From a virus (taxonomy: Duplodnaviria > Caudoviricetes), in IMG/VR virus record IMGVR_UViG_3300024262_000031, positions 1 to 61,276 of that record: a stretch of 61,276 nt of DNA. The stretch is one strand, 5' to 3'. Of the stretch, positions 15,480-59,879 are shown piece after piece; positions within the stretch are counted from its first letter, which is position 1; the number at the start of each line of letters is the position of its first letter. A program made the position numbers and the translations under genes. Below the pieces are notes generated by a model. It did no database searches. It was not told where the DNA came from and saw only the letters and a program-made list of their open reading frames with translations.

Positions 15480-15494
15480 GTCTAACTCCCTCGA

Positions 15495-25007: not shown

Positions 25008-25745
25008 TTATGAATAACGACTGACAGTAGCTTCAACGGAATTACATCGACCGGAGGTCGAGATAGTCGCATCACCAAGGTCAAATTCCAAGGACTCGTA
25101 ACGGTAGTCCGGCAGAATCGTCATTTCATTCTGTTCTGAACCACATGACAACACGTGGTCAATAACAATGTCAACAGCATAGGGCTCACAAAGGTCGTCA
25201 GATGACGACACCCATTCTGAAGCATCACCTTGTCGTTTCAGAGCATCCACAACTGTGATATCTTCAGCAGTTCCGCTTGTTACATGCTCATACACAAAGT
25301 CAATGGACACGTCCATTGGTTGCTGGTCGCCTTCTCGTACTGTGTCGAGGTCACCACGGTCCAACAGGTACTCATATTCCTTCGCTTCGGTGTAGGTAAC
25401 GTTTCCTTCACCAATCTTAACCTCAATCCGTTGAGGTAGGAAGGTAAGTGTATCCGCGTTGGCTGGCGTAGGTGTACCCCAAGCAGGCGAGAACGCAATG
25501 TTGGTCGTCGGACCTGCACCCGTGGGGGTACGGGCAGTGACGGTGTACTCGGTATCTTGGTTAGCAGTACTAACCGTAAACCGAGCACCAACGGGCACCA
25601 AATCCGTGTCATCAGTGTTCAACACTGGACTGCTGATATCTACATCAGTATCGTTCGCACCGGGGGTTGCCTCATTTAATGTGGCAGTCCCAGAGAGTCC
25701 GTCCTGAATATAAATCAGCGCGTCACGGAGTTCAATTCGGGCCAT
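25008..25745 (-). CDS. major tail (tube) protein
   Basis: Acidic, Thr-rich 245 aa starting MARIELRDA; position between tail terminator and chaperone; followed by a terminator. Confidence 0.75.
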   Translation of the reverse strand: MARIELRDALIYIQDGLSGTATLNEATPGANDTDVDISSPVLNTDDTDLVPVGARFTVSTANQDTEYTVTARTPTGAGPTTNIAFSPAWGTPTPANADTLTFLPQRIEVKIGEGNVTYTEAKEYEYLLDRGDLDTVREGDQQPMDVSIDFVYEHVTSGTAEDITVVDALKRQGDASEWVSSSDDLCEPYAVDIVIDHVLSCGSEQNEMTILPDYRYESLEFDLGDATISTSGRCNSVEATVSRYS

Positions 25746-27739: not shown

Positions 27740-27789
27740 TACTTGTCTACCGTTACCACTGTTATACTTGTCTACCGTTACCACTGTTA
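27740..27789. repeat. perfect 25-bp tandem duplication at the 3' end of the 1742-aa gene
   Basis: TACTTGTCTACCGTTACCACTGTTA occurs twice in tandem. Confidence 0.9.
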
Positions 27790-30700
27790 TACATGTATGT
27801 GATTTCGTCATCAGTCAGAATATGCTTCCAGAAATGCACGGCGTCAACAACGCCACCCAGAGGCTTTTTAAGTTCAGCATCGCCACTGATTGTGAAATCG
27901 GCAGCACCCGTATGGATGCCCTTGGTATAAGCTAATGTGGCGAAGGTTCCATTATTTACACTGACACCAAGTTCTTGGTTTGTATCGTCGTAGTATACAC
28001 AGAAGAAATACCATGTATTAGCCGATAGGGCTACCCCATGAGTTAGTTCTGTTTTCTTGCTACCATCTTTTGAGACATTCCACTTTAGGTGACCATCTTT
28101 TTTAGCCCGTAACAGATACTCACGCTCACTAGACCCTTCGTCCCATTTTCCAAAGAACCGATATTCTTTATCCCAATTGTTTACCTTAATCCAACCAGTA
28201 AACATGAAGTCAATATTTCCAGTTTGAAGAGTCGCATCATTAGCAGCTATCAATTGTTCATTGTTAGCTAACACGAAGTTAGCCGCGTTACTGACCTTAC
28301 CAGTCGTGTAACCCACGGTGTTCCAGTCGATAAGGTCATTGTTACCCCAAGAGTCATACCGTACACCGCTTGTCTCGTCTAGGTGCCAAGCTGAAATCAG
28401 ATTGGCAGCTAAGATGCACACACTATGGTCGACACCAACGGTGCTGCTCGCATTTGCATAAATTATCTTCGTGACACCGACACTATGATTTATCTCAATG
28501 GTGCTGTTAGCCGACCGTTGGAACACAGCCGAGTATTCAGCGTCATGGTCCAAGGTTAAGGTTGAGCTACCATCTCGATTAAAAATAGCCGAGTAGCTCG
28601 CATCCTGAGCCAAAGCTAAAGTGTTGTCGGCAGCACGATTGTACGTACCCTGAAGCCCAACTTCATGGTCGATTCCAATATCAGAGTCAGTATCACGGTC
28701 GCGGAACACTGACAAGGCTACGTCCTGGTCGAGAGCCAAAACACTATTGGCCGACCTATCACGGAACACTGAAAGTGTTAATTCATGGTCAATACCAATG
28801 TCTGAGTCAGGATTCTGGAAGGCAAGACGTTGATGTGCTACACTGTGATCGACACCAATATCACTATCAAGCCCCCGTGTCATGACCTTTTGATTCGAGA
28901 CTGTTTGATCCAGGCTCAGTGCTGAGTCACCGCTTCGAGGTCGTACCATCGAAATACTGACCTCTTGACCCATATCCAAATTACTGTCACCATCACGTCC
29001 GTACACAGGGCCGCCGTCGGCTATCTGTACAAGCTCGATTGAATCTTCTAACGAACGATTGAAGATACTACCGCTTGAAATCACATCCGAAGTTATCGTC
29101 AAGTCGGATTGAGCACCTCGCCCATGCGCGTGCTGCAATACAACATCTTGAGTGACACCAATGTCCGATTGGACCCCACGGTTCCAAACGCTACCAGCCG
29201 CACTTGCGTCGTGCGAGATGCTCAAATCACTTTGAGCACCACGATAGAACGTTCCTTGGTAACTCGCCGTGTGGTCCATAGTTAATGCTGAGCTTGCCCC
29301 AAGCTCTCTAACTACAGATAATCCAACATCTTGACTCAAGGTCAAATCAGATTGCGCCCCTAACTCGCGAATAACTGACAGCCCCACATCTTGAGAGATG
29401 GCGAGGGTATTTGAGGCTGTCCTATTGAGTACTTTCTGTACCTCAGCGTCTTGTGTAATCGTAAGGTCTGATTGGGCACCCTTGTTGAACACATGGACAA
29501 CTGAGGCTTCCTGGTCCATTGACAGGGTGGATTGTGCCGACTGGCTTGAGATGTGCGACACAGTCACACTATCAGCTATACCGATATCTGATGAGGCAGA
29601 CCGCATCGCCACGTGAGAGGCATGGACTGTGTGGTCTAACGCAAGTGTCGAACTAGCTGTACGACTAAACACTGCCGAGTAAGCAGCCTCGTGGTACATC
29701 ATTATTTGACTACTTACGGCCAGTTCCCGGGTTACTGACAACCCGACTATTTGAGTCAGACTCAGAGTCGATTCAGCGTCTCGACTCATGGCCTTTTGGG
29801 CTACAGCATCATCTGTGAGGCTCAGAGTCGACTCAGCGTCTCGACTCATGGCCTTTTGGGCCTCAGCATCGTGGCTAAGACTCAGAGTTGACTCAGCGTC
29901 TCGACTCAGGGCCTTTTGGGCTACAGCATCATCTGTGAGACTTAGAGTCGAGTCAGCGTCTCGATACATGGTCTTTTGGGCTACAGCATCATTTGTAAGG
30001 CTCAGAGTTGACTCAGCGTCTCGACTCATGGTCTTTTGGGCTACAGCATCGTTGCTAAGACTCAGAGTTGACTCTGAGCCTCGATACATGGTCTTTTGTA
30101 CACTAACCTCTTGGTCCAATGTCAGTGTATTGCCAATGCTCTGCCCACGGTAGACTAGGACGCTCGCTGTGTGCCCCAAAGAGAGCGAGTTGCCCGCACC
30201 CCGGTTCAGAATGGCTTGTACGTCTACTTGCTGCGTAAGGGCCAATGTCGAGCCCTCAAGCGTGTTATTATCGGGACCACGATTCCAGATGCTACCAGCC
30301 GCACTCACATCCTGACTCAAGCTCAAGGCTGAATCCGTACTACGTGAACGATGCACAGACAACTGTGCTGTTTGGTCAAGTGTTAAACTGTTACCCTCTA
30401 AGGTACTATTGTCCGGGCCACGATTCCAAATGCTACCCTCAAGGCTAACACTTTGACTGCATGTCAAGTAGCTCATACCGCTACCTTCCATACCGGCTTG
30501 ATAGTTGCATTGATGCCCAAGGTCAATAATTGATTGTGCTGACGCAAATCGAATTCGCTGTACAGTAGCATCGTGGTCCAAAGTTAGATCATTCTGGGCA
30601 TCACGTGGACGAATAACCTGCACCCCAGCGACATGGTCAAGATCAAGCTCAGAGGCCGAACCATCGCTTTGGGCGAGAGTCTTAGCTACATCCTGGTCAA

Positions 30701-32990
30701 GAATAATGTCGGTTTGTGGGCCACGGTTGAAAATACTGCCCGAGCTAATCACATCTTGAGACATAACGAGATCGTTATGTGGATTACGATTCCAAATACT
30801 ACCTTCTTTATTCAGGTCTTGATCTAAGGTAAGTGTGTTGCCTTCTAGGGTTGCATTGTCAGGTCCACGATTCCAAATGCTACCCTCTGTATTGACCATT
30901 TGGTCAATTATTAACTGACTACTTGCGGCCAGTTCACGGATTACTGACAACTCGACTGCTTGAGTCAGGCTGAGAGTGGATTCAGCATCCCGGTACATAA
31001 CTTTTTGTACGCTAACATCTTGATCCAATATCAGAGTATTACCCACACTCTGTCCACGGTAGACCAATACGCTCGCTGTGTGCCCCAGAGAGAGCGTGTT
31101 GCCTGCACCCCGGTTCAGAATGGCTTGTACGTCTACTTGCTGCGTAAGAGCCAATGTCGAGCCCTCAAGCGTGTTATTATCGGGACCACGATTCCAGATG
31201 CTACCAGCCGGGCTGGCATCCTGACTCAAGCTCAAGGCTGAATCAGCCCCCCGTGAACGATACACAGACAACTGTGCTGTTTGGTCCAGTGTTAGGCTAT
31301 TACCCTCTAAAGTATTATTGTCAGGACCGCGATTCCAAATGCTACCCTCAAGGCTAACACTTTGACTGCATACCAGGTAGCTCATACCGCTACCATCCGT
31401 ACCGACTTGATAGTTGCATTGATGCCCGAGGTTAAGGTCAGATTGAGCCATTGCATACCGTACTCGCTGCACGCTAGCATCATGGTCCAAGCTGAGGACA
31501 TTCTGGGCACTACGTGGCCGAATAACCTGCACCCCAGCGGCATGGTCAAGATCAAGTTCGGAACCAGACCCGTCGCTTTGGGCGAGAGTCTTAGCTACGT
31601 CTTGGTCCATAGCAATGTCGGATTGTGGGCCACGGTTAAAAATACTGCCAGAACTAATCACATCTTGAGACATGACTAAATCGTCGCTAGGCCCTCGGTT
31701 CCAAATGCTACCTTCAGGGCTAGCCGTCTGGTCTAATGTGAGTGTGTTACCCTCAAACGTGGCATTATCAGGGTTGCGATACCAAATACTACCGTCTTTA
31801 CGTACCTCGTGGCCCACAGCAATGGCTGATTCAGCATCTCGATTCCAAATACTTCCTTCCGTACTAACTAACTGATCCATACTCAAGTCGGAATTAGCAC
31901 TTCGATTAAATATTGCTGAATAGCTAACATTCTGGTCCAACCCTAAATCGGATTGGGCAGGTGTTCCAAAAGCTGTCCCTGCCGTACTAACCTCTTGTCC
32001 AAGAATAAGAGTGTTTTCTGCTGATCTGTTATAAATACTTCCTGCTGCACTAGCTGAATGATTCAAGTTAAGTGTATTTTCTGGTGTTCGATTCCAAACG
32101 CCAGATACATCTACCTGATGTTGTAGATTAAGTGTTGATTTAGCACTTCGATTGAAAATACTACCAGCGGCACTCACTGAGTGTTGAATGTTAATGTCGT
32201 TTGTTTCATGGCCGAAGGTTCGATTGATAACTTTTACAATCTCGACACCAACACCCAATGTATTGAATACCAAGTCCGTCGAAATAGCTGAGCGATAAAG
32301 AATCTTTTGAGCGGTAGCTGACTGGTCTAGAATTAAGTCGTTTTGTGCTGCGTAAATTTGAGAGACCCCGAGAGACGCAGACTGGGCCAGACTCAATGTA
32401 TTCTCAGCAGACCGATACATAACCTTTTGAACGGCTACGTCATGGTCTAATGGAATGTTATGTTCGGGATGGTGGGTTGACCATGGAACTACCTCGGCAT
32501 AACTATCTAGGTTACAAAGTATGTTGCTGGCATTTTCATGGAAAATACGTTCGGCATGTTGGCCAACTATAACTCTACCTACAATAATCCAGCCCGCACC
32601 GTGATCCAGTTTTTCGATACTCTTGATTTCAAAGCGTTGGTTATTATAGACAATCCAATCGTCCATATTAAATTCAAAATCATTAGGTAGATGACGGCCC
32701 TCTATAGCAAAGGTCTTAACACCGGAGTCGAATGTGCCACCATACACCATTGTTTTGTTCGCAGAAATCTGTGATATAGATTGTAAGACTTCACGAGCAA
32801 GTTTGGTGGGGGTAACCACTGCCGTCAGTTCATAACTGATTTTATCAATGGTTTTTACACCCGTGGTATAATCAGTTTCAGCGTCTATCAGTTGATATAC
32901 AACTATACTAGCACCGTATTGGTTTCGCAAACCATACAGCACTTGACGGACTAGCCGTACATATCGACGTTGAACAAGATTAAGACTCAT
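27762..32990 (-). CDS. head-closure-like N-domain fused to long beta-repeat shaft and C-terminal LamG domain (neck fibre?)
   Basis: First ~145 aa resemble head-closure proteins (D..TG.K......DD.IVY.N..FEIK); ~20-aa repeats R.A.S.L.L.Q/H; C-terminal AWHLDETSG LamG-like domain. Confidence 0.75.
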   Translation of the reverse strand: MSLNLVQRRYVRLVRQVLYGLRNQYGASIVVYQLIDAETDYTTGVKTIDKISYELTAVVTPTKLAREVLQSISQISANKTMVYGGTFDSGVKTFAIEGRHLPNDFEFNMDDWIVYNNQRFEIKSIEKLDHGAGWIIVGRVIVGQHAERIFHENASNILCNLDSYAEVVPWSTHHPEHNIPLDHDVAVQKVMYRSAENTLSLAQSASLGVSQIYAAQNDLILDQSATAQKILYRSAISTDLVFNTLGVGVEIVKVINRTFGHETNDINIQHSVSAAGSIFNRSAKSTLNLQHQVDVSGVWNRTPENTLNLNHSASAAGSIYNRSAENTLILGQEVSTAGTAFGTPAQSDLGLDQNVSYSAIFNRSANSDLSMDQLVSTEGSIWNRDAESAIAVGHEVRKDGSIWYRNPDNATFEGNTLTLDQTASPEGSIWNRGPSDDLVMSQDVISSGSIFNRGPQSDIAMDQDVAKTLAQSDGSGSELDLDHAAGVQVIRPRSAQNVLSLDHDASVQRVRYAMAQSDLNLGHQCNYQVGTDGSGMSYLVCSQSVSLEGSIWNRGPDNNTLEGNSLTLDQTAQLSVYRSRGADSALSLSQDASPAGSIWNRGPDNNTLEGSTLALTQQVDVQAILNRGAGNTLSLGHTASVLVYRGQSVGNTLILDQDVSVQKVMYRDAESTLSLTQAVELSVIRELAASSQLIIDQMVNTEGSIWNRGPDNATLEGNTLTLDQDLNKEGSIWNRNPHNDLVMSQDVISSGSIFNRGPQTDIILDQDVAKTLAQSDGSASELDLDHVAGVQVIRPRDAQNDLTLDHDATVQRIRFASAQSIIDLGHQCNYQAGMEGSGMSYLTCSQSVSLEGSIWNRGPDNSTLEGNSLTLDQTAQLSVHRSRSTDSALSLSQDVSAAGSIWNRGPDNNTLEGSTLALTQQVDVQAILNRGAGNSLSLGHTASVLVYRGQSIGNTLTLDQEVSVQKTMYRGSESTLSLSNDAVAQKTMSRDAESTLSLTNDAVAQKTMYRDADSTLSLTDDAVAQKALSRDAESTLSLSHDAEAQKAMSRDAESTLSLTDDAVAQKAMSRDAESTLSLTQIVGLSVTRELAVSSQIMMYHEAAYSAVFSRTASSTLALDHTVHASHVAMRSASSDIGIADSVTVSHISSQSAQSTLSMDQEASVVHVFNKGAQSDLTITQDAEVQKVLNRTASNTLAISQDVGLSVIRELGAQSDLTLSQDVGLSVVRELGASSALTMDHTASYQGTFYRGAQSDLSISHDASAAGSVWNRGVQSDIGVTQDVVLQHAHGRGAQSDLTITSDVISSGSIFNRSLEDSIELVQIADGGPVYGRDGDSNLDMGQEVSISMVRPRSGDSALSLDQTVSNQKVMTRGLDSDIGVDHSVAHQRLAFQNPDSDIGIDHELTLSVFRDRSANSVLALDQDVALSVFRDRDTDSDIGIDHEVGLQGTYNRAADNTLALAQDASYSAIFNRDGSSTLTLDHDAEYSAVFQRSANSTIEINHSVGVTKIIYANASSTVGVDHSVCILAANLISAWHLDETSGVRYDSWGNNDLIDWNTVGYTTGKVSNAANFVLANNEQLIAANDATLQTGNIDFMFTGWIKVNNWDKEYRFFGKWDEGSSEREYLLRAKKDGHLKWNVSKDGSKKTELTHGVALSANTWYFFCVYYDDTNQELGVSVNNGTFATLAYTKGIHTGAADFTISGDAELKKPLGGVVDAVHFWKHILTDDEITYMYNSGNGRQV
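29760..30120. repeat. about six copies of a 60-bp tandem repeat (AQKAMSRDAESTLSLTDDAV)
   Basis: Consecutive 60-nt lines align almost exactly (CTCAGAGT.GA.TCAGCGTCTCGA...CTTTTGGGCTACAGCATC). Confidence 0.9.
30100..31790. repeat. internal duplication of about 0.78 kb with a 909-bp offset inside the 1742-aa gene
   Basis: GCCAATGTCGAGCCCTCAAGCGTGTTATTATCGGGACCAC occurs at 30241 and 31150; the protein repeats GSGMSYL.CSQSVSLEGSIWNRGPDN. Confidence 0.85.
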
Positions 32991-33011: not shown

Positions 33012-33323
33012 TTACTTAGATTGTGTGGGTTGTGTAGGACAATCATCAAGCTCAGGACAACGATCACATACTTTAGCCATGACAGCGGCGACCCATTTCA
33101 TACAGTCAGCACTATGGGTTAAAGCAATAGTTGATTTTTCTACTAAATCCGCTAGGGTTTCTTTTTGGTATTCTTCTAATGAAGTAATCCTATCACTGAG
33201 TTTGTCTTCTCGTTTCCAGTCTCGCCAGATGAAGAAGAGAACTACTCCGATCAATGGCCCATACTGTGAGAGCAGACTAGACCAAATTAACGGATCTATT
33301 TGCGACATAAGTAAAGCATCCAT
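33012..33323 (-). CDS. holin-like protein (single N-terminal TM plus coiled coil, BhlA/UviB-like architecture)
   Basis: LLSQYGPLIGVVLFFIWRDWKRE..L; AAGGAA RBS upstream of ATG 33323. Confidence 0.55.
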   Translation of the reverse strand: MDALLMSQIDPLIWSSLLSQYGPLIGVVLFFIWRDWKREDKLSDRITSLEEYQKETLADLVEKSTIALTHSADCMKWVAAVMAKVCDRCPELDDCPTQPTQSK

Positions 33324-33345
33324 GTGGAATTCCTTCCGCGAGATT

Positions 33346-33378
33346 AAAAAAGGTGCCCGGCCCGAAGGCCGGGACACC
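33346..33378 (-). terminator. intrinsic terminator after the major capsid gene
   Basis: GGTGTCCCGGCC-TTCG-GGCCGGGCACC-TTTTTT on the minus strand (cUUCGg loop). Confidence 0.9.
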
Positions 33379-33396
33379 GTAATCATCTAACTTGGA

Positions 33397-34803
33397 TTAA
33401 CCAAGCAGGACCGAGCCGAGGCGCACGTCCAAAGTCTTCACGCCGCACAGAATGTCGAGAGTGACAACAGTACCTTGCGCATACACATCGTATTGCATCG
33501 TAACACGCATGGCCACATCGTTGTACACACCAACCTGCGACCGCACACCGAGAGCACCGGCTGGCAGAGCCAGGGGGCGACTTACGAGAGCGATAGCATC
33601 GCGGTGGAAGCAAAGGTTCATAGAGCCACCCGGACCTGGGAAAACGTCAGAACTGTCAGCGACGGTGTCTTCCAAAGGTCGATCCAGCCAAACCTCTCGG
33701 TCGCCAGCCGCATCGAATGACTCGATAACGGTATAAATCTTACCAGCGATCTTCAAGATTTGACCAACTCGCGGATGCTTGCCAGTAGTAAAGCTGTCAA
33801 GATTGATGCCCTTGGCCCAACCAGCAGCGTAACCGCCACCGAAGTCAATGGCACATTTCTTGTAAACGGTGATGGGATCATTAGCTGATACCGCATACTT
33901 CAGAGGCGCATCCAGAGCGATAAAGTCAGTATCGCTCGCGTTGGCTGCGGCCACTGTCAGCACAGTTGGCTGACCGTCACTTGAGATGACACAGTACTCG
34001 CCGACAAAAGCGACGTAGTCCGGATCAAGATCAACTGCGATGTTAGCACTGTAACCAGCAGCGTAACCTACAGTCGTTTCACCGGGGGCTGTGTCAAGAT
34101 TCACCGGGTCCAGACCAGTAACGTTCTGATCCATCCAGGTGTCGAAACCAAGAACCCGACCCAAAGCCGCTTCACGAAGGGCACGGCCACTGTCGCCACG
34201 CTCGTTGGCCTTCAAGAACATCTCTGTCTTGAGCATAGCCGTCTCAGCAGACGGAGCCAATACGCAGTTACGGTTTTCTGGGAACGCAAGGTTCTCATTC
34301 ATGGTCTCACGAGCCTCAAGCAAGTAATCCTTGGCGTTCAAGGCACTCAGGGCGCTAAGACGACCAACACGGTTGGCCAAGAATTGTGGAACCTGACCCA
34401 AAATGGCACGGTCGATACCGCGAGCGATACCTTGCATACCTGGGAGCAGATAAATGTCCACGAGTTCCTGGAATGACTTACTCGCTTCACCGTCCTTGAT
34501 GGTAAACGAGATATACATGTGCTGATCCAGGGGAACTTGCACATTGGTAGACTGTGCATCTTGTAGCACAATGGCGTCAGCATCAGTCTTACGCTTGGTA
34601 CTGAACGTACCAGGTCGACGAGTGTTCACTACGTCGCCGTAGTTGGCAACCTCGGGCGAAAAGTCACGGTGGACTAGCCCAGCCATTACCATATTTTCTT
34701 CAAGAATGTGCAGACCTTCCATCGCCCACAGTTCCGGGAAAAACGCAGAGTTTTCGTTGTCAAACAACGCAACCTCTGCCTGACAAAGATAAAGACTATT
34801 CAT
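33397..34803 (-). CDS. major capsid protein (P22 coat-like, with an insertion domain)
   Basis: PELWA.E.L..LE...V...LV.RDF.......GD.V....P; FHRDAIALVSRPL; D.L.GVK.L; AGGAG RBS; strong terminator. Confidence 0.9.
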   Translation of the reverse strand: MNSLYLCQAEVALFDNENSAFFPELWAMEGLHILEENMVMAGLVHRDFSPEVANYGDVVNTRRPGTFSTKRKTDADAIVLQDAQSTNVQVPLDQHMYISFTIKDGEASKSFQELVDIYLLPGMQGIARGIDRAILGQVPQFLANRVGRLSALSALNAKDYLLEARETMNENLAFPENRNCVLAPSAETAMLKTEMFLKANERGDSGRALREAALGRVLGFDTWMDQNVTGLDPVNLDTAPGETTVGYAAGYSANIAVDLDPDYVAFVGEYCVISSDGQPTVLTVAAANASDTDFIALDAPLKYAVSANDPITVYKKCAIDFGGGYAAGWAKGINLDSFTTGKHPRVGQILKIAGKIYTVIESFDAAGDREVWLDRPLEDTVADSSDVFPGPGGSMNLCFHRDAIALVSRPLALPAGALGVRSQVGVYNDVAMRVTMQYDVYAQGTVVTLDILCGVKTLDVRLGSVLLG

Positions 34804-34862
34804 CTTAAATCTCCTTTGGAGAAGTTTACAAAAAAAAGTTATGGTTAAAACGAACCCCCACT

Positions 34863-35774
34863 TTAGCGATCAGATCGTAAGCCTAGAAGACCGGGGTTTT
34901 CTTTTCTAAGTTTCATATATTGCTCTGGGGAGAGCTTTTTCACATCAATACGACCTGCGGAACCCGGTGTAACGCCTCCGGTAGCGGAACCCGCACCGAT
35001 GCCACTCACGACATTGGATTTGAAGAGGTTCCCATACTGTTCGGGTATCTCCTTCATCCTCTTTACGGCTTCATCTGGGGTTCGTTGTGTCATGACTGGT
35101 TCTCCCGCTTCATTTACGTCCGGAAAATCCAGCATGGGAATTAAGTGTCCAGTCGGCTGTCCATCTGGCCCCTTAGCTTCAACCATCTTCGTCATGGGAC
35201 GCAGAAGTGCAACGACTTGTAGCGCGTTGAAAGCATCGCCAACGGTGGCAGCGTCAATCAATGCACGGTCAGTAACGGAAGTCTTATACTTGCTCTCCCA
35301 TTCGACCGCAGCGGTCTTGTAGGTCTCAAGCTCGCCTGTCAAGGCAGTTTCCATTTGTTGCTTCTCGTGCGCAAGCTGTTGTTCCTTGGTACGGAATCGC
35401 TTCTGAATATCGGACAATTCGCCCTCTAACCGCTCTCGTTGATCGGTAGACAGTGATTGATTCTCCAGCAACGTTTTGTATTCCGTTTCCAATTCACGAT
35501 ATTTTAGCTCTTGCGTCTTTCGGTCCTTGGCTAATCTCTCTTGAACGATACGGTTCAAGTCTTCCTGTGAAAATACCTTGCCACCTGTACCAGGGCTATT
35601 ACCAGCCGCACCAGCGTGGATTGGGATAGACCCCTTTCCAGCATCACCAGCGTCACCAGCCCCAGCGTCACCAGCACCAGCATCGCCAGCATCGCCAGCA
35701 TCACCGGCATCGCCAGCATCGCCATCGTTTTCGTACAGTCCAAGCCACGCAGTTGTGAGATAAAGATCGAACAT
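34863..35774 (-). CDS. capsid scaffolding protein
   Basis: FSQEDLNRIVQERLAK motif, coiled coil, acidic GDA repeats, C-terminal LSPEQYMKLRK; directly upstream of capsid. Confidence 0.85.
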   Translation of the reverse strand: MFDLYLTTAWLGLYENDGDAGDAGDAGDAGDAGAGDAGAGDAGDAGKGSIPIHAGAAGNSPGTGGKVFSQEDLNRIVQERLAKDRKTQELKYRELETEYKTLLENQSLSTDQRERLEGELSDIQKRFRTKEQQLAHEKQQMETALTGELETYKTAAVEWESKYKTSVTDRALIDAATVGDAFNALQVVALLRPMTKMVEAKGPDGQPTGHLIPMLDFPDVNEAGEPVMTQRTPDEAVKRMKEIPEQYGNLFKSNVVSGIGAGSATGGVTPGSAGRIDVKKLSPEQYMKLRKENPGLLGLRSDR

Positions 35775-35844
35775 TTGGATTTCTCCTAAAAAACCCCGCT
35801 ATTGACACCATGGTCCACCTTCGCGGTAAAAGGTAGTGGTTAAA

Positions 35845-36369
35845 TTATGATACCCTACTGAGCTTAATCTTGTCACCATCCCGTAAGAACGGCTTCAAAT
35901 ATCTCCATGCCGTAGCACTCGGAATACCATGAAGCAAATGTTCAATGGGTTGTTGACTGCGGTTGTAGGTTGTCCGCACAGATGCAACACCTTGGCTAAC
36001 TACTGATAGTTGTTCAAGTTCTGCATCGGGGTCGACTCCATCCAGTAATGCGTGAGCACATTCGTAACAAGCAACCTCGATGGTCACTGGTGCTACTGTG
36101 TCCGCGCCACGCGGGAACTCAAGCGTCTGCTCAGTTTCCGCTTCCCTGATTTCTTCATCCGTGGCATCGGGGTCATCTTCCAACAACTCCCACACGCTAT
36201 GCACATTACCTTTATAGTTCAAAGCGTCAATACACTGAGTTGCACGTAGTAATGCCTTGGGACGATCCGCTGCACTAGACTCAAACCAAGCTTCTTCGTG
36301 AAGTCTATTCTCGAAGTATTCATTTGCTTCGCAAAGCGTACCGTAGTACATATCTTCTGTAATCGCCAT
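35845..36369 (-). CDS. head-tail adaptor (DnaT-like family)
   Basis: Y.TL.EA.EYF...AL.RAT..ID...YKG...Q.LEFPR...A.YE.A...YLKP.L pattern. Confidence 0.8.
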   Translation of the reverse strand: MAITEDMYYGTLCEANEYFENRLHEEAWFESSAADRPKALLRATQCIDALNYKGNVHSVWELLEDDPDATDEEIREAETEQTLEFPRGADTVAPVTIEVACYECAHALLDGVDPDAELEQLSVVSQGVASVRTTYNRSQQPIEHLLHGIPSATAWRYLKPFLRDGDKIKLSRVS

Positions 36370-36379
36370 GCTTTACTCC

Positions 36380-39300
36380 TTATCGGCGGCGGAAACCGCG
36401 AACATGTCTGTTAGTCATTCGAGTCCAAGGAAAACAATGGATAGACAGTGAATGAATAGAACTCACTGCTTCGCCCGGTAAAGCTCCAAAATCCCAATTA
36501 TAGTTTACGCCTAAGTCCGTATTACCCGGGGCAGTGGCGTCGATTGTCGTACCTGCGTTAGCATTGCTATATCTAACGCTTACGTCAAAGGCCAAAGCAC
36601 TAGCACCCTGTACGTCTAAAGTCCAAGTATTAGTTGCATTAAAGGTTACATTAGAAACGTAAAAATCATTTCCTACGATTATGTCAGCGGCGTTCATCGC
36701 ATCGGCATCCGATACAACACTAAATCCCGTGCTGTTTGCTGAGTTGATGGTAAAATCACCGATTGTTTGTAGCGTCTGTCCGTTAAAGTCTATCTCACCG
36801 GCTGTGCCTAAGAAAGAGTCCGTGACCATGTTTCCAGTGAGAATCGCTGTACCAGATGCTTTGTCAACAATCACGTCTTCAACATCACCGGCACTGAAAT
36901 TAAGCTCTTGAGTACCCGTACCATCCAGTGTGATAGATGAGCCAGCCGCACCTTTGGTGTAAACTTTTGGACCAGCACCCAACAACTGGAAATCACCACT
37001 GATATTCCAATTGGTGTCAGCCCCGGCTCGTGTAATCGCAGCGGTCCCGGAAGACGAACCTGACATTCTAACGATGCCCGTGACATTGACTGTCGGATTA
37101 TTAGTTCCCATGTCTATGGTCACATCACCAGTACTGTCAGCATTGACAATAAGGTAGCCACCAAAAGTATATGTCCCAGCGGCAAATTCTAATGTTCGAG
37201 TACTGTTTGAATGATAATAAGTATTGGGATAAATCCCATCATCAAAGGGATTAACTGTGTCCAAGTACCTAAGAAACAAAGTACCCGTCCCAGTAATCTG
37301 ACCATCGTTAGTTGGGATACCATAGCCACTGGCTGGTTGATAGCAATAAATACGACCCCCTGTAGCAATAACAATTTCGCCGCCAGACTCCACGATTATG
37401 TCATTGGAACCCGATATCTTGATGTAATGTCCTGTATCAGTGGTAGTAAATGTTCCGCCGTTAGTGACCTTTAACCAACCACCCACTACCCCCGTATTTA
37501 TAAAGAGAATGTCAGATGATTCGGGATGTGTATAGGTGCCAGAAATTGTCAATCTGTAAAAGGCATTGATATCGCCCGAACAATAGGTCTCAATGTTTCC
37601 TGATCCAGTTAATTGGATTTCACCACTTTCGGCTAGGAATGAACCAGACGCAGTCGCGGCAACCGTATCCCAATCACCACCTACATCCCAGGTACCTGTA
37701 CCGGCTCGGCAGGTAGTGCCACTGTTCATGCGGAAGAAATCATTGATCGTAACATTCCAATCGTCGGCATCAAATATACCACCGTCGATCAAGAGACTTT
37801 GACAATCAATGTCACTATTTAAGTCCATAGTGCCACTGGAATCAATTTCAATGGCATCCAAAGTTCCAACGACCCGACTCGTATCAATATACGTAGCACC
37901 TGTAAAGGTTATGAGTCCCGTACCTTTGAACCAATTTACTACATTTGCACCATTAGTTGCTGAACTTCTAAAATAACTACCTATGGTGATATCAGGGTTA
38001 TAGGTATTGTTATAGATATAGATTTGATGACCCGTATCAACTGATCCACTGTAACAGTGGAGATAACCTGTGTAGGTATGCGACCCTGCACCGAAGGTGA
38101 TATAACAATGACCGACATAAGGAGCCTCAATATGTAAATTACTACTATAAACTCCAGCGGGCCACACAGCCGCCGTTGTGGACCAATTACGAAGGTATAT
38201 ATCACCGACTGAAATGGACCCTGAAGTATAGCTAACTAGACCACCGCCAACGCGACTATAATAGAATACAATAAAGGTTCCTGTGATTGAGCTACTTGGC
38301 CCCGTTGTCATTTGACAATTACCATAAATCCAAAAGCCGGCAGCTATATCAAAGGTGCCATTGATGACACAGGTTCCATCCTTAACTACCAACGCAGCCG
38401 AAATATTGGTGATAGTCGCGCCAGTTGAAACTTCAAAATGGTATGGACCATAACCAGTAGTATTACCCTTAATGGTCTTCCCAGTGCCAGTCATAACAAG
38501 CTTACCGCTATCCTGATGAAAGTTCGAGGGTGTTGCAAGGCTAATGTCTACGTTACCATTACACGTCCAAGTACCTTCACCCATATAGACTATGCCATCA
38601 GTCAGCGTAAGATTACCCGTACCAGTGATGGTTACGTCGCTGGTGTCAGCATCAAAGGTTCCACTTGAGAGCGTAAAGCTTTCAGGTTTAATAATAGTCG
38701 CATCGGTATCCAGTGTCCACGTTCCACTTCCATTAAACACTACATCTTCGATATCATTAGTGTACGTGTCCAGAGTATGTGACCCTGACCCAGCAAACGT
38801 GAGTGTACCAGAACCCTTGTTCCAAACTATACTGTGATGAAGGAAATTAACATTGTTCCCATCGGTACAATTGAAATTCCAGTTGATAGCTGATGCGCCG
38901 TTGTTGCTGACGGTAATTATCCCGCCAGTTGTAGGTGCCACATTAAACTCGCCTGTGAGGGTAAAGGCTGGAATATTAGTGGTGTTATCAACCAAAAGTG
39001 AATAGTTAGCTGGATCATTCTCACTAGAAAATCTTAAAGAATGAAAATTGTAAGCACCTGTTAATGGTTGCCAAGTACTATTCTCTGATTGAGCCCAAAT
39101 CTTGACTTCACCGTTTGTATAATTACCAGGTGGAATCAATACACCGACTTGAGGATCGTAGAAAACTGTGGAAGCTATACTAAAGGTATATGCACCAACT
39201 AAGGTCAAACCTTTACCCACACCCATACTCAAGAAACGCAGAGTTCCCGTACCAGTAACCGTACCGTTGTTGATTGTCATATTACCGTCGCCACTATTAC

Positions 39301-41980
39301 AACGGAATGCCAGAGTGTCTACGGTTAAAGTACCCGTCACTAACGTTTCGTACTGAACATCAATGGAAGTATCAGTGCTGGAATGGACGTACGTTGAACC
39401 AGATACAGTAAGATTTGTAAGAATTTGGGAGATAGCTCCTAAGAGATATTTATTTGTGCCCGTCATATCGAAGAGAGTTAGACTATTCAAATCCCATGTT
39501 ATTACATCTTTGTAATCAAAATTCCCAGCAATCGTCCAGGTTCCGCCTACACCAAGACCAGCCTTGGTGTCTACTTCGTCCATGTCGAGAATCACATCAC
39601 CGGCAACATCAACGTCTATCCCATTGGTCCAGAGGCCACCATCTGTCCCCGTAAGAGACTTACAGTCCAGATGTGCCACGGGGGAACTTGTACATACAAC
39701 CCCTGTCCCTGAACCACTATTGTCCAAAACAACATTACCAATGCCATGAGCCCATTCATAAGTTTGGTTTGCTGTCCCTACAAATTCTAATGTCTCACTC
39801 CCTACCGTCCAATCTATCTGTGATGAATCGACGCCACCACTATAGGTAGCACTGCCAGCAATATTAAACGTAGGATTATTGGTCATGTCTACATGGAGAA
39901 TTCCAGTACTATCCTGATACAAATCAAGGATAGTGATATTAAAAGTTCCACCATCTGGTTTCACATAACAACCGGTCGTGCCCTCACTCCGAATTTGAAC
40001 GTGTGATCCACCATAAGTTCCAGGTGCCCATAGACTTCCTGACTGACATTGCATGAAAACAGTATGATAGGCCGCCCACGTCCCAGCATTGGTTATGACA
40101 CCATACCCCGAGGTAGTTTCGTATAGCCAAATACCATCTCCACTACTAGACGTAAGGACTCCAGTTGAGCGAACATGGACATTTACGGGACCAATACACC
40201 TGATAGTGTGGCCATTAAAACTCAATGTCCCGTAGAGATCAAGACCAGAAGTAATATCAAGAGTAGGTCCACCAGCTAATGTGACTGTTACACCAGTGTT
40301 GACAGTCAGTGCTCCAATATCGACTTCAGATGTGTAAGTAAAGGTCGAGCTTGCTGTCATTACAAATCTAGTGCTGCCAGTAGACGAGGCACCAGCTATG
40401 TTAGTCGTGCCACCTAAAGTCCAGGTACCAGAACCCGTTGTTAAAGTATCCGGGCCTTTAACGACACCACCGCCGGTAACAGTTACATCGTAACCATTAG
40501 CATTCCAGGTTCCATTTGTCAATGTCAGTGTACGACAGTAGAAGTGACCACTTAGAGTCACACCGTTGGCAGTCTTATTCAGAACTACAGGATCAACTGT
40601 AGCGTACGCCATACAGTTAGTCGTATTGGTCGTACTTTGTAGGTTAATGACGGACGCGGAACTCTGTGTCCAACCTGCGCCACTCTGGACACGGAATAAA
40701 TTGTCAATGTAGGCGTCATATTCGTTGAGGTCAAAGATACCATCAATAATGTCTAAGCCATTACAATATAAATCCCCGTACTGTAGAATACTCCCTGACC
40801 CTGTTTTTTGGACCCGAATGATATTGAAAACGGGATCAGCAATATTTCGAGCATCGAGATATCTACCAGCCTCAGCACCTGTGAAGTAGATAATTTCGGT
40901 ACCACTATTCCAATAGAATCCCCCAGAACCACGAATATACGAAGTAACAAACGATGCCCCGATCCTCCAATAATTACCAGTACTCTGAGTCACAGTCATA
41001 TTAGCAGTAGTACTAGCCTCCATTATTATTTGGAGATGGCCACCTATATCAACATTACAACTACTTCCACCTGCCCTTATATTTAAGCTACCACTCGCAT
41101 TAGCATTCGATTGCTTACAAATCACAGTCCCACTGATGTGACAATATTGATTCGGAAACGTAAACTGCCCATCCGTTGTAGCTGGACCCCAGACCTGAAA
41201 AGCAGCATCGTAGCCATTCGTGGTACTCATTGCCCACACACCAACACCAAGTGATATGCTAGGATAAAAGTTGTATACTGTACCCCCAATCAGGTTCGCA
41301 GTGGCAGCCATAGATGCTACACCACCTACTCCCGGGGAGTACCATGCAACGTAGCTAGTGGATACGTCTAGGGTAGCGCCAGACTCAAGATATATCTTGG
41401 ACTGCCTTACTGCCCCGATGTTCCAAGCTACCATCGTCGTAGGAACAGTCAACGTTTTATTCGTTTTGACAGTGAGATCGTGGTGCCACCGCACCGTTGT
41501 TGTATTAGCTGTAACTGTGCCGTTAATCTCTAAGTCATAGAAATAAGTTGCTCCTGATTGGCCAGTCTGAAGCCCCTTACCAGTACCAGTCATTATAATT
41601 TTACTACTACCTGGAAGCCATGTGCCAAGAACCAAATTGCATTGAAGATTGCCCCCAATACTCCATGTTGATGTAGTCCCCAGTTTAATCGAACCAGCAG
41701 CCGCGCATCCAAAGATGCAGTCCCCTGTGATTGTATGGACATAGGTGCTCAGATTATCGGTTCTAAGTTCACCAGCAAAATCATTGTACATACTTAATGA
41801 AGCTATAGATACATTAGCAGTGATGGTACAGTTCTCACTGCCAGACGATGCCTTGAAGATAGCCGTATCACCGGTTGTGGGATACGCAGCAACGGGCGCA
41901 CCACCGTCACTTAACGACCATGCGTCGGTAGTATCATTCCAAATTCTAACACCAGGTGCTACCCAATAATATGTTGCCAT
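36380..41980 (-). CDS. giant beta-strand/beta-helix repeat virion protein (head fibre or spike candidate)
   Basis: 1866 aa, Gly/Thr/Ser-rich; MATYYWV...W...P...D.A.F N-terminus; recurring GT....G.W...G...MTGTGK units; located in the head module. Confidence 0.75.
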   Translation of the reverse strand: MATYYWVAPGVRIWNDTTDAWSLSDGGAPVAAYPTTGDTAIFKASSGSENCTITANVSIASLSMYNDFAGELRTDNLSTYVHTITGDCIFGCAAAGSIKLGTTSTWSIGGNLQCNLVLGTWLPGSSKIIMTGTGKGLQTGQSGATYFYDLEINGTVTANTTTVRWHHDLTVKTNKTLTVPTTMVAWNIGAVRQSKIYLESGATLDVSTSYVAWYSPGVGGVASMAATANLIGGTVYNFYPSISLGVGVWAMSTTNGYDAAFQVWGPATTDGQFTFPNQYCHISGTVICKQSNANASGSLNIRAGGSSCNVDIGGHLQIIMEASTTANMTVTQSTGNYWRIGASFVTSYIRGSGGFYWNSGTEIIYFTGAEAGRYLDARNIADPVFNIIRVQKTGSGSILQYGDLYCNGLDIIDGIFDLNEYDAYIDNLFRVQSGAGWTQSSASVINLQSTTNTTNCMAYATVDPVVLNKTANGVTLSGHFYCRTLTLTNGTWNANGYDVTVTGGGVVKGPDTLTTGSGTWTLGGTTNIAGASSTGSTRFVMTASSTFTYTSEVDIGALTVNTGVTVTLAGGPTLDITSGLDLYGTLSFNGHTIRCIGPVNVHVRSTGVLTSSSGDGIWLYETTSGYGVITNAGTWAAYHTVFMQCQSGSLWAPGTYGGSHVQIRSEGTTGCYVKPDGGTFNITILDLYQDSTGILHVDMTNNPTFNIAGSATYSGGVDSSQIDWTVGSETLEFVGTANQTYEWAHGIGNVVLDNSGSGTGVVCTSSPVAHLDCKSLTGTDGGLWTNGIDVDVAGDVILDMDEVDTKAGLGVGGTWTIAGNFDYKDVITWDLNSLTLFDMTGTNKYLLGAISQILTNLTVSGSTYVHSSTDTSIDVQYETLVTGTLTVDTLAFRCNSGDGNMTINNGTVTGTGTLRFLSMGVGKGLTLVGAYTFSIASTVFYDPQVGVLIPPGNYTNGEVKIWAQSENSTWQPLTGAYNFHSLRFSSENDPANYSLLVDNTTNIPAFTLTGEFNVAPTTGGIITVSNNGASAINWNFNCTDGNNVNFLHHSIVWNKGSGTLTFAGSGSHTLDTYTNDIEDVVFNGSGTWTLDTDATIIKPESFTLSSGTFDADTSDVTITGTGNLTLTDGIVYMGEGTWTCNGNVDISLATPSNFHQDSGKLVMTGTGKTIKGNTTGYGPYHFEVSTGATITNISAALVVKDGTCVINGTFDIAAGFWIYGNCQMTTGPSSSITGTFIVFYYSRVGGGLVSYTSGSISVGDIYLRNWSTTAAVWPAGVYSSNLHIEAPYVGHCYITFGAGSHTYTGYLHCYSGSVDTGHQIYIYNNTYNPDITIGSYFRSSATNGANVVNWFKGTGLITFTGATYIDTSRVVGTLDAIEIDSSGTMDLNSDIDCQSLLIDGGIFDADDWNVTINDFFRMNSGTTCRAGTGTWDVGGDWDTVAATASGSFLAESGEIQLTGSGNIETYCSGDINAFYRLTISGTYTHPESSDILFINTGVVGGWLKVTNGGTFTTTDTGHYIKISGSNDIIVESGGEIVIATGGRIYCYQPASGYGIPTNDGQITGTGTLFLRYLDTVNPFDDGIYPNTYYHSNSTRTLEFAAGTYTFGGYLIVNADSTGDVTIDMGTNNPTVNVTGIVRMSGSSSGTAAITRAGADTNWNISGDFQLLGAGPKVYTKGAAGSSITLDGTGTQELNFSAGDVEDVIVDKASGTAILTGNMVTDSFLGTAGEIDFNGQTLQTIGDFTINSANSTGFSVVSDADAMNAADIIVGNDFYVSNVTFNATNTWTLDVQGASALAFDVSVRYSNANAGTTIDATAPGNTDLGVNYNWDFGALPGEAVSSIHSLSIHCFPWTRMTNRHVRGFRRR

Positions 41981-43668: not shown

Positions 43669-45525
43669 CTAATTTTGTTGGTTGTCGCGGCCTTCGCCAC
43701 GAACAGGTTTCTTGATAGATTCACGCATGGTCACATCCCGGCTCTCTTCTTTTTCTTCTTTACCTTCCGTAGCCGGATCGGAAGATACGTCGGTGAGACC
43801 TCGGGCTCCAGCCCGATCCTTATTACCCTCGCTACTCTCAGTTTCCTCGTCTCCTGATTGCGCTTCCTTTATACGCGATATACGCTCCATGTGGTCCTTC
43901 CTAGCTTGGAGGTATTCATTATCACTAAAGCCTAGAGCAATTGAGGCCGTTTGCTCACCAACTAACCCCGCCTCGCGCGACTTGATAATTACTTCAGGGT
44001 CGCTAGTGGTATAGTTTGCCGTCTCAACTTCCTTGTAGATTCGGTCTAAAGTATCCACTGAAACCTTCCCTGATAGCAGTGTAGATACAATAGTCTTCGC
44101 AAGCTCACGTTTAACTGTACCGCCAGGTACCGTGTACATAAGCTCAGCGACTTTGGTTGCCTCTTCAATACGATTTTTGTCAGTCTTCAAACTGTACCTA
44201 TCGGGATACTTGATTGTCGGGACCAAACGTTTTCGAGAAACACGTTCCTCGTACGCGGACCAAAATTCACCAATTCGACGCTCAGCACCTTCTAGGATGA
44301 GACCAATAAATGACAACCCAGCTTCCAAGCCTTGGTTATCCATTTCCTTGGACTCGGGTGATACACGCTTTCCAACTTTATTTTGTACAGCAAGCTGTAC
44401 TAGTTTACGTATATCGTCCTCAAGTTTTTCTTGCAGCTTAATAGAGGCTTCTAATGGTTCAGGTGACGGATGGATAAAGGACGGGGCTTCCATTTTCATG
44501 TCGTAAGCACGACCTTGGGTAGCACCCACTGTGATTTCTTTATCATGTGCGCCTTGCCCACCAGAAGTAGCCGTTCCATCGGGATTAGCTGCGTGTTTGA
44601 GGTGGTCTCCAACGGCACGCAAGTCTTGTTGTTCAATGTAAAAGGGATAATTCGCTTTCAACGCATACGCTACATCACTTGAGCCTAAATTCAATAAAGC
44701 GATTTGGTGTCTACATACATCCTTCAGTAAACTGTCACCTATATCCAACAACACAAACGGAATTTGAGTGAGTTCGAGTTCGATTGGTGCGTCCGTAGCT
44801 GGCATACCAGTGTACCTATCGACAGGGAGTCCTTTTGTGTCAAAGAATTGTACGTTTACTTTTCCAGTATCTTGATTGATCCACACCAGCCTGAAACGTT
44901 CGTAGGTGCCATCTGGGATACTAATCTGATATCCACCAGGTTGTTTGAACGTCGCACATCTATCCCGTAATAAAATGGCTTGAAATTCTTCTGGTCTACT
45001 GGGGTCAGAACAGGTCCATGAAAGAATGTCTTCTACTGGATATCTGTATAAATATGGTCGCATTTCGACTGTATCCGCAAGACTAGCTTGGCCACCGAAA
45101 CTTGGGGTAGTGACTGGCATATCAATATAACAACCGACCCGCCCCATTACTAGCAATTCTGTTAGGATATCAACACCCATGAACTTGTCCATACTGGACC
45201 CCTTCATGTCGATGCCGCCTTGTAATCCTTGAATAGCGTACTTATACGACTTAGAACCACCTTTACGAACGGCGTCGTTCAGGCGTTGAAAAATAGAGTT
45301 ACGCACATCGTTTACAGCAGCCTTAGCAAAGGCGGGTATGGGAGTAATAGATTTTCGTGAGTTGAAATCATCGTCACTCTCACGTGTCGTGAACTTTCGC
45401 AAATAGCTATTTACGAAGTACTCACCAGACTCGTACGTGTCTCTCCATAGTTGCCAATATCCCAAGTCCTTAATATAGACTGGGTGTCTAGCAGCAACTA
45501 AATTATGAAAGGTTGGACTCGCCAT
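43669..45525 (-). CDS. portal protein
   Basis: 618 aa after terL; HP.Y......W...RD...G..Y...YL......E...F..R and L..IPFV patterns. Confidence 0.85.
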   Translation of the reverse strand: MASPTFHNLVAARHPVYIKDLGYWQLWRDTYESGEYFVNSYLRKFTTRESDDDFNSRKSITPIPAFAKAAVNDVRNSIFQRLNDAVRKGGSKSYKYAIQGLQGGIDMKGSSMDKFMGVDILTELLVMGRVGCYIDMPVTTPSFGGQASLADTVEMRPYLYRYPVEDILSWTCSDPSRPEEFQAILLRDRCATFKQPGGYQISIPDGTYERFRLVWINQDTGKVNVQFFDTKGLPVDRYTGMPATDAPIELELTQIPFVLLDIGDSLLKDVCRHQIALLNLGSSDVAYALKANYPFYIEQQDLRAVGDHLKHAANPDGTATSGGQGAHDKEITVGATQGRAYDMKMEAPSFIHPSPEPLEASIKLQEKLEDDIRKLVQLAVQNKVGKRVSPESKEMDNQGLEAGLSFIGLILEGAERRIGEFWSAYEERVSRKRLVPTIKYPDRYSLKTDKNRIEEATKVAELMYTVPGGTVKRELAKTIVSTLLSGKVSVDTLDRIYKEVETANYTTSDPEVIIKSREAGLVGEQTASIALGFSDNEYLQARKDHMERISRIKEAQSGDEETESSEGNKDRAGARGLTDVSSDPATEGKEEKEESRDVTMRESIKKPVRGEGRDNQQN

Positions 45526-59156: not shown

Positions 59157-59434
59157 TGTATTTTTACGTAGACTTTCATGCGGACGGAGGACAAGCGTGT
59201 GTACCCGGTCGTCGTCGTTTCGATGACCTTGAGGAAGCTGAAGAATTTTCGCTCTTAATGTCAGCAGAACCGGGTCATATTTGTAAGAATGATGTACGAT
59301 TCTTTGAGAGTGAACGTCGCCTAAATGAATACGGAACGATTGCTTTGAATCCGACGTTCCCACCCAGTGGTAGCCAAGCACATTTTAACGACTGCTTAAA
59401 TTTTACGACTAATGAACCCGAAGCTGTGGAATAA
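59156..59434 (+). CDS. hypothetical protein
   Basis: TAATG stop/start coupling with the previous gene. Confidence 0.6.
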   Translation: MYFYVDFHADGGQACVPGRRRFDDLEEAEEFSLLMSAEPGHICKNDVRFFESERRLNEYGTIALNPTFPPSGSQAHFNDCLNFTTNEPEAVE

Positions 59435-59879
59435 TATCCGATTTTGCAAACAACGGGACTGTTTTTCATGCGGTCCTATGGCCCTGCTAAATGCGGACAA
59501 GTTTTTCGGTAGGGATATTACCTATCGGCACCTTCCAGCTTACCAAAAGATGGTACACTGTGCGCCGAAGCATGGTACATACACAAGCGACATGTCAAAC
59601 GTCTTAGGGCGGGCGAGTCGTAGGTCTTGGAAAACAACGAAGAAATTTCTACACGGACATTGCTTGATTATTCAAACCGGAGATGGTAAGCGTGGCCGCA
59701 AGGGACACTACTCACTGATTTGTATGGATCGACAGGGGGACTACTTTCTAGTGAATCATTACAAGGCCGCTTACGCTGCGGTAGCAGTGAGTTGGCAAAA
59801 GGTATACTGGCTTTGGCGAAAAGCCCACAGGGTTTGGTATGTAAACGAACCCATTTTGGAGACGAACGATGAAGCTTAG
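59412..59879 (+). CDS. C39-like cysteine peptidase
   Basis: Q....SCGP.AL.N, GT...M, GHY, and LVN arrangement of a papain-like triad. Confidence 0.65.
   Translation: MNPKLWNNIRFCKQRDCFSCGPMALLNADKFFGRDITYRHLPAYQKMVHCAPKHGTYTSDMSNVLGRASRRSWKTTKKFLHGHCLIIQTGDGKRGRKGHYSLICMDRQGDYFLVNHYKAAYAAVAVSWQKVYWLWRKAHRVWYVNEPILETNDEA

Follow-up and report, generated by a model that had tools for sequence, protein, structure and literature searches.

A phage-matched N-terminal leader on the coat and scaffolding proteins of a P22-type phage group, and its possible removal during assembly

The major capsid (coat) protein and the scaffolding protein of an uncultured tailed phage begin with similar hydrophobic leaders of 14 residues, which are the subject of this report. 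The phage is represented by IMG/VR virus record IMGVR_UViG_3300024262_000031, a phage contig with a completeness estimate of 58%; its whole stretch of 61,276 nucleotides (nt) was analysed and is called the window below. Comparison with related phages shows that the leader is a module joined to the protein at an exact boundary, that it is maintained by selection at the protein level, that it is matched between the scaffold and coat of each phage, and that it has been transferred between genes, in some relatives to the tail-tube protein. The balance of the evidence tips, if not heavily, towards a propeptide-like tag on bulk self-assembling virion proteins that would be removed during assembly.

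The two leaders in the window

The relevant features are as follows.

33397-34803, minus strand: major capsid (coat) protein, P22 type, 468 amino acids (aa); PF11651 P22_CoatProtein, E 6e-29; phrog_283, E 2.4e-51
34863-35774, minus strand: scaffolding protein, 303 aa; phrog_206 (head scaffolding), E 5.6e-10; phrog_2303, E 2.1e-5
34762..34803, minus strand: coat leader, residues 1-14, hydrophobic, ending in Phe and followed by Asp-Asn-Glu-Asn
35733..35774, minus strand: scaffold leader, residues 1-14, hydrophobic, ending in Tyr and followed by Glu-Asn-Asp-Gly
34811..34814, minus strand: GGAG ribosome-binding site of the coat gene, 7 nt before the ATG, read from the sequence
35783..35787, minus strand: AGGAG ribosome-binding site of the scaffold gene, read from the sequence
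35634..35732, minus strand: acidic Asp/Ala/Gly low-complexity stretch after the scaffold leader (approximately residues 15-47)

The coat passes the PF11651 gathering score with 101.5 bits against a cut-off of 24, and its AlphaFold2 (AF2) model has a predicted template modelling score of 0.75. The initial annotation, made from the sequence alone, had proposed that capsid and scaffold share a 14-residue N-terminal leader. Both open reading frames (ORFs) are as it described: the two 14-residue N-termini agree at 6 positions, and position 14 is Phe or Tyr in both proteins, after which comes Asn flanked by two acidic residues. Both leaders are taken to be translated, because each ATG has a GGAG site 7-8 nt upstream and the next in-frame Met of the coat falls within the conserved N-arm.

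A regular-expression scan of every frame of at least 80 aa in the window returned five aromatic-acidic junctions located 5-25 codons after an ATG, and only those of coat and scaffold lie behind a hydrophobic leader (a fraction of 0.71 hydrophobic residues in each) at a real gene start. Two of the other three follow alternative ATGs inside a 917-aa ORF near 10190, and the third follows an internal Met of the glucose-6-phosphate dehydrogenase gene. In the AF2 coat model the predicted local distance difference test score (pLDDT) stays under 50 over residues 1-17, ahead of an N-arm helix that begins at residue 23, so that the coat leader is predicted to be disordered and hence accessible. Scaffold homologues repeat the layout seen in the window, namely a leader, an acidic or Ala-rich linker and a coiled coil.

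Conservation of the leader and its junction

The coat search gave 1023 homologues at E <= 0.001, of which the 120 listed were examined, and 2454 cluster representatives; the scaffold search gave 219 at the same threshold, again with the 120 listed examined. Gene context came from 25 loci in IMG/VR and 24 in genomes. Wherever both genes are visible in a related locus, the scaffold gene immediately precedes the coat gene, within the order portal, adaptor, scaffold, coat.

Five of the 120 listed coats are N-terminally truncated gene calls and were excluded. In a MAFFT alignment of the 115 usable sequences, the junction column is aromatic in all 115 (Tyr in 59, Phe in 56). The preceding residue is Cys in 85, Leu in 26, Ser in 2 and Ala in 2, and the following residue is Ala in 74, Asp in 17, Val in 14, Glu in 9 and Ser in 1. 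The coat leader is mostly 13-14 residues long and spans 8-17 residues in 114 of the 115. For the scaffold, a loose regular expression recovered the junction in 112 of the 120 listed homologues, with Phe (72), Tyr (39) or Trp (1) as the aromatic and Asp (73), Glu (38) or Ser (1) as the next residue; by inspection, the eight misses consist of two truncated calls, five slightly different junctions and one with His. Failure of homologues to conserve the motif jointly in capsid and scaffold would have spoken against the original proposal; the junction is in fact conserved in both.

The junction also separates two kinds of sequence. Mean hydropathy falls from +1.18 before the junction to -0.88 after it in the coat (n=113) and from +1.03 to -1.17 in the scaffold (n=109), while net charge passes from about 0 to about -3.

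The Cys that often precedes the aromatic residue could be read as part of a lipobox. This reading was ruled out, since many members have Leu, Ser, Ala or Val there and the leader is without a basic N-region.

An added module with an exact boundary

The leader can be absent. The 150 coat representatives of 50%-identity clusters that were examined (34-59% identity) divide into 97 with a leader that ends in an aromatic residue, 27 with an N-extension of another kind, 15 without a leader, and 11 that are truncated or could not be anchored. The leaderless proteins start with Met-Ala-Asn, with the initiator Met at the aromatic position. Cultured distant relatives begin at the same place: Gordonia VanLee, Microcystis MaAM05, Vibrio SSP002, Dinoroseobacter R5C, Pseudanabaena Pan1, Clostridium phiCP39-O and Aeribacillus AP45. 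Because leaderless homologues begin at the aromatic position, a cut after the aromatic residue would yield their N-terminus as it stands after Met removal. The typical N...PE.W start of the capsid had been said to follow the leader directly, and the leaderless relatives do begin at that very residue. One leaderless coat was seen together with its scaffold (locus L098), and that scaffold is leaderless as well.

Leaders are matched within each phage

In the 25 IMG/VR and 24 genome loci, the scaffold leader resembles that of its own phage's coat. The same is found in a wider set, fetched with two leaderless representatives, in which the leader bodies are wholly unlike those of the window and yet scaffold and coat are matched phage by phage. 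In the genome G001, two prophage types have different leaders, each matched within its own scaffold/coat pair.

The matching was quantified with 49 unique scaffold/coat pairs, aligned without gaps and anchored on the aromatic residue. Mean identity is 3.98 of 9 leader positions. Per-position identity is 0.31-0.71 in matched pairs versus 0.08-0.26 in mismatched pairs, and 0 of 20000 shuffles, which ignore the relatedness of the phages, reach the observed sum. About five junctions misplaced by the regular expression were kept in the set and weigh against the result. No excess is seen at the three positions that follow the junction: identities are 0.27, 0.33 and 0.18 for matched pairs versus 0.20, 0.28 and 0.21 for mismatched pairs. 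Phe or Tyr 14, put forward earlier as the boundary, is upheld both by this end of the co-variation and by the starts of the leaderless homologues.

Identical leader residues are encoded by the same codon in 103 of 206 cases (30 pairs), and close coat-leader pairs show 135 synonymous against 147 non-synonymous codon differences. Because half of the identical residues use different codons, the matching must be kept at the protein level, and recent gene conversion can be ruled out as its sole cause for the same reason. Conversion does occur, in loci L030 and L106.

A third carrier, the tail-tube protein

A scan for extra copies of the coat leader showed that the orthologue of a further window protein bears the phage's own coat/scaffold leader in nine related loci.

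25008..25745, minus strand: tail-tube protein, leaderless in the window, starting Met-Ala-Arg-Ile; start and ribosome site identified

The AF2 model of this protein has a pLDDT of 80.7, and in Foldseek it ranks tail-tube chains of siphophages (T1, P74-26 and others) first, at E 2e-4 to 1e-3 and with template modelling (TM) scores that are low (0.32-0.40); synteny agrees with the assignment. Of 32 unique tube proteins, 22 start with Met-Ala-(Arg/Lys/Gln)-Ile, and the remaining 10 have an N-extension joined at that Ala. In L030 and L106, the tube leader DNA is identical to the coat leader DNA at 27 and 28 of 30 nt, which indicates a recent copy, while in L039 and L137 the figures are 17 and 20 of 30 nt, with synonymous divergence. 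Near-identity in some loci and synonymous divergence in others together imply that leaders have been copied between genes and then kept.

The tail tube bears directly on the possibility that the leader is an uncleaved assembly motif, in which leaders pair as matching strands, or fit one pocket on a co-evolving phage protein, and so form a private code between scaffold and coat. We consider this unlikely, although it is the main alternative. The leader body is indeed matched within phages and different between them, including the two prophage types of G001, and protease searches of the window and of a relative bounded by terminal repeats were negative (see below). A precedent exists in Staphylococcus phage 80alpha, where, according to PMC5744158, the scaffold leader is required for assembly and its cleavage is not. 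Mere scaffold-coat pairing inside the procapsid, however, leaves unexplained a leader on a non-procapsid protein in nine loci, and the finding favours instead a tag that is handled by a common factor. Leaderless and leadered forms moreover alternate, at an exact boundary, among close homologues of three proteins, which would be unusual for a fixed binding site. A tag pasted onto the exact N-terminus of an unrelated protein is most easily tolerated if it is taken off again.

The identity of the three carriers raises another possibility, namely that shared first codons or a shared nascent peptide boost the translation of the three most abundant virion proteins. Coat, scaffold and tube are in general the highest-copy proteins of a phage, as this would have it. 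We nevertheless think such an expression device very improbable: conservation does not act on the DNA or RNA, since only half of the identical residues share a codon; a translation enhancer would not be expected to have an invariant aromatic residue exactly at the module boundary; and the length range of the leader (8-17 residues in nearly all coats, as given above) also speaks against it.

Likely hosts, Prp and ribosomal protein L27

The best-known shared leader of this kind is that of 80alpha, and a sequence-distinct signal analogous to it had been predicted for the window. According to PMC5744158, the host cysteine protease Prp cuts between Phe and Ala and removes 13-14 residues from both coat and scaffold, and the same motif occurs on the major tail protein of another staphylococcal phage. 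The prediction has held up in that the shared N-terminus is real, is under selection and is built in the same way. The accompanying suggestions, a Prp-like host route and a host L27 extension carrying the motif, have not.

Eighteen of the 24 genome loci are in Planctomycetota assemblies, and many of them lie inside contigs of 0.3-6.6 Mb, which identifies them as prophages. The hosts are therefore likely to be Planctomycetota, an assignment that for the window phage comes from its relatives only. The coat was found in 1 of 101 randomly sampled Planctomycetota genomes, namely the index genome, so the prophage is rare. Prp (PF04327) was not found over the cut-off in any of five prophage-bearing Planctomycetota genomes or in any of the 101 sampled genomes of the phylum, with the Bacillus, Thermotoga and Lactococcus genomes that served as positive controls all positive, and there is no Prp in the window. 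In all five host genomes L27 starts directly at its conserved core, without an extension. With neither Prp nor an L27 extension, the 80alpha mechanism is not available in these Planctomycetota hosts.

The 80alpha mechanism proper, in which the leader would mimic the N-terminal extension of host L27 and be cut by Prp, is consequently the least probable of the explanations considered here. In its favour are the equal leader length of 13-14 residues and the commonest coat junction, an aromatic followed by Ala (74/115), which is like the Phe|Ala site of Prp as given in PMC5744158; the AP45 scaffold described next can be added to these. Against it stand the host results and the variation of the leader between phages, which is not what the copying of a single host motif would give.

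Aeribacillus phage AP45 is a cultured phage of a Firmicute host. The leader of its annotated scaffold (L079, 2733-3470) ends in Phe-Phe, then Ala, with an acidic Gly-rich linker after it, an arrangement shared with the scaffolds described above. The related coat of AP45 has no leader, so that the leader is on the scaffold only. This leader looks like the Prp type, and we take it to be the Prp motif.

Search for a leader peptidase

The absence of a prohead protease from the head module, noted at the outset, was confirmed by profile searches, which detected no prohead protease family among 51 window ORFs against Pfam or among 25 head, tail and accessory ORFs against PHROGs, in a window that covers about 58% of a genome. 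A C39-like peptidase encoded near the end of the window had been named as a speculative candidate for the cleaving enzyme.

59412..59879, plus strand: small C39-like papain-fold cysteine peptidase, 155 aa (predicted from Atlas, TM score and invariant residues)

The first half of that suggestion is plausible and the second is not supported. The ORF has no Pfam match, but its Atlas features score 0.95 for the C39 family, its structural TM score is 0.63, and Gln, Cys, His and Asn are invariant in 10 homologues, so that a papain-fold C39-like cysteine peptidase is a plausible identification. A profile built from its family, which replaced PF13529 because that profile misses the window's own ORF, finds the family in 1 of 24 related records. 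Two leader-bearing records lack it, one of them 100% complete and the other bounded by terminal repeats, and searching with the single sequence gave one positive among 5 viral records and none among 5 host genomes. A family present in 1 of 24 related records is not the general leader enzyme.

More broadly, a phage-encoded papain-like leader peptidase, whether the product of this ORF or an exported one encoded at 50226-52262, appears improbable. The small ORF is attractive on several counts: it has no signal peptide by eye, it carries the invariant residues and the Atlas and TM scores given above, and C39 enzymes are known as the leader peptidases of bacteriocins. A homologue (P0402) and a leader-bearing scaffold homologue (P0163) are also on contigs that are both 24874 long. 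The distribution of the family speaks against a role of this kind, as do the PF13529 matches in host genomes, which are not adjacent to prophages. The leaders, in addition, end in Cys or Leu and then Phe or Tyr rather than in the double glycine of C39 substrates, and the larger candidate has an export signal.

That larger candidate (50226-52262, minus strand) is a protein of 678 aa that combines a twin-arginine (Tat) signal with a papain-like peptidase core (a weak PF13529 match), and it is probably exported. It is interrupted by a LAGLIDADG intein after a conserved Ser-Trp-Gly, and its gene is adjoined by a thioredoxin-domain gene at 49494-50204. Homologues of both genes are found upstream of the terminase in L030, and a thioredoxin-domain ORF is found there in L027.

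Autoproteolysis was also considered and was judged unlikely, as three unrelated folds share the junction.

A removable tag as the favoured reading

The reading that we somewhat favour is that the leader is a modular, propeptide-like tag on bulk self-assembling virion proteins. In this scheme, a neutral, hydrophobic, strand-prone stretch ending in an invariant Phe or Tyr would be attached to coat and scaffold always and to the tail tube in some relatives, with the body of the protein beginning right after it, at position 2 of the leaderless homologues. An endopeptidase would then cut the tag off after the aromatic residue and thereby regenerate the canonical N-terminus. Before its removal, the tag may keep the protein chaperoned or assembly-incompetent, or it may hand the tagged proteins to one common factor. 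The enzyme would not be Prp, and could be either a broad-specificity host enzyme or an unrecognised phage protein.

Four observations lead us to infer removal: the boundary is exact, its aromatic residue is invariant, three unrelated proteins have gained and lost the leader, and 80alpha and AP45 offer parallels. The cut, the bond at which it would fall and its role in assembly thus belong to the proposed scheme, within which the mature coat N-terminus is probably the residue after the aromatic.

Several points weigh against this scheme. First, a single conserved host enzyme does not by itself explain the matching of leaders within each phage, as the two prophage types of G001 illustrate. Second, a papain-like enzyme would take the aromatic residue as P2 and cut one residue later, which would place the bond differently. 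Third, the enzyme is not apparent in the phage genomes: the Pfam search of the 51 window ORFs detected no peptidase family except a sub-threshold C39_2 match in the Tat-exported protein, and no peptidase family was found at E <= 0.001 among the 84 ORFs of the terminal-repeat-bounded relative, a 68-kb sequence (74% complete by CheckV) that has leaders on coat, scaffold and tube and shares the replication genes of the window. Fourth, host proteins with such an N-terminus were sought in the five host genomes, at low power, and none was seen. A degenerate DNA pattern (Cys, Phe/Tyr, Ala/Asp/Glu, Asn, Asp) gave 9 matches, 3 of them at an ORF start, and all 3 are prophage coats. A 14-position leader profile, likewise of low power, gave 17 matches at E <= 10 and no host carrier; 8 of the 17 are the prophage scaffolds and coats from which the profile was built, and the rest are one short remnant beside an apparent tRNA gene and other weak matches, including an ordinary secretion signal. 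Finally, no cultured phage belonging to the leader-bearing clade turned up in the phage collection: the window coat has no phage-database match that reaches 32% identity, and a second leader-bearing coat has none that reaches 29%.

A bolder formulation, which we hold only tentatively, is that the leader is a phage-private assembly code. Such a code would evolve fast, be identical across coat, scaffold and sometimes tube, and spread by small gene conversions. It would be read by a factor that gates the self-assembly of abundant virion proteins, and this factor could be a new cytoplasmic leader peptidase or chaperone of Planctomycetota and other hosts, or an unrecognised phage protein.

Comparison with known systems

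To our knowledge, tailed phages mature their heads by one of three routes: with a phage prohead protease, without any protease (as P22 does) or, in a single Firmicute case, with host Prp. The leader fits none of these routes, and it is found in a large uncultured P22-type branch of hundreds to thousands of sequences, many of them Planctomycetota prophages.

In phage T4, a short N-terminal capsid-targeting tag is present on several head proteins and is removed at maturation by the gp21 prohead protease. The leader resembles this tag in being short, N-terminal and common to several head proteins. Unlike the gp21 system, neither the window nor the terminal-repeat-bounded relative has a prohead protease family, and the leader is also on the tail-tube protein, which is not loaded into heads. 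As in P22, there is a PF11651 coat, a separate scaffold gene directly upstream and no protease gene; P22 and the cultured relatives checked are, however, without such a leader. Bacteriocin and other ribosomally synthesized and post-translationally modified peptide (RiPP) leaders cut by C39 enzymes offer a looser parallel, with one leader on several precursors per genome and, in the window, a C39-like peptidase gene. They differ in that no Gly-Gly site is present here, the peptidase is not co-conserved and the substrates are large structural proteins.

The closest parallel is 80alpha, and in the excerpts available the literature searched yielded only 80alpha work on a leader shared by coat and scaffold. 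Set against the account in PMC5744158, the two systems have in common a 13-14-residue leader on both proteins, a junction after an aromatic residue and usually before Ala, the lack of a phage prohead protease, and a tag that is also on a major tail protein in a related system. They differ in that the likely hosts are without Prp and an L27 extension and the leader sequence is unrelated. The leader here copies no host motif, varies by phage and matches within each phage, and its cleavage is a proposal.

Whichever outcome holds, it concerns the control of assembly of abundant self-polymerising proteins: cleavage would require, in hosts without Prp, a leader peptidase still to be recognised, and uncut matched tags would represent a new way of coupling scaffold, coat and tube. 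Should the private code be real, it would imply a maturation pathway outside all known prohead-protease and Prp systems. On the practical side, gene callers and structure pipelines should expect N-terminal extensions of this type.

Other features of the window

The structural module is encoded on the minus strand in the order terminase, portal, cargo genes, adaptor, scaffold, coat, small membrane protein, neck genes, tail tube and tape measure. In addition to the genes listed above, the following were assigned.

46439-48106, minus strand: gpA-type large terminase
43669-45525, minus strand: portal
35845-36369, minus strand: Ad1-like adaptor
19646-23710, minus strand: tape measure

Directly after the coat gene, at 33012-33386 (minus strand), is the gene of a small protein that has a single membrane helix and a Cys-rich tail. 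The first set of loci has it at this position in 32 cases and the second set in 6; a membrane protein within a head module is unusual. A gene at 27762-32990 (minus strand) encodes a protein of 1742 aa. Its first ~165 residues match a neck-type protein that stands alone in relatives, and this part is fused to a very long degenerate-repeat array and a C-terminal laminin-G-like domain. Between portal and adaptor, a gene at 36380-41980 (minus strand) encodes an 1866-aa protein with no family match, which is present only in the closest relative, L001; other relatives have different cargo or nothing there.

Three tandem paralogues of ~350 aa each, one with a weak laminin-G match, are encoded at 14424-17617 (minus strand). 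They are related to genes that occur singly in prophage relatives, downstream of the tape measure, and are probably distal tail or receptor-binding proteins. The window also carries two auxiliary metabolic genes on the plus strand, for glucose-6-phosphate dehydrogenase and an NAD-dependent sugar epimerase/dehydratase (56299-57696 and 58215-59156), with an HNH/NUMOD4 homing endonuclease between them.

A last observation comes from a host genome. At locus L083 (G002:C1 near 1294292), a short open frame begins in the manner of a scaffold, with leader and junction, and continues into what reads as a translated tRNA gene; it may be what is left of a prophage at an integration site.

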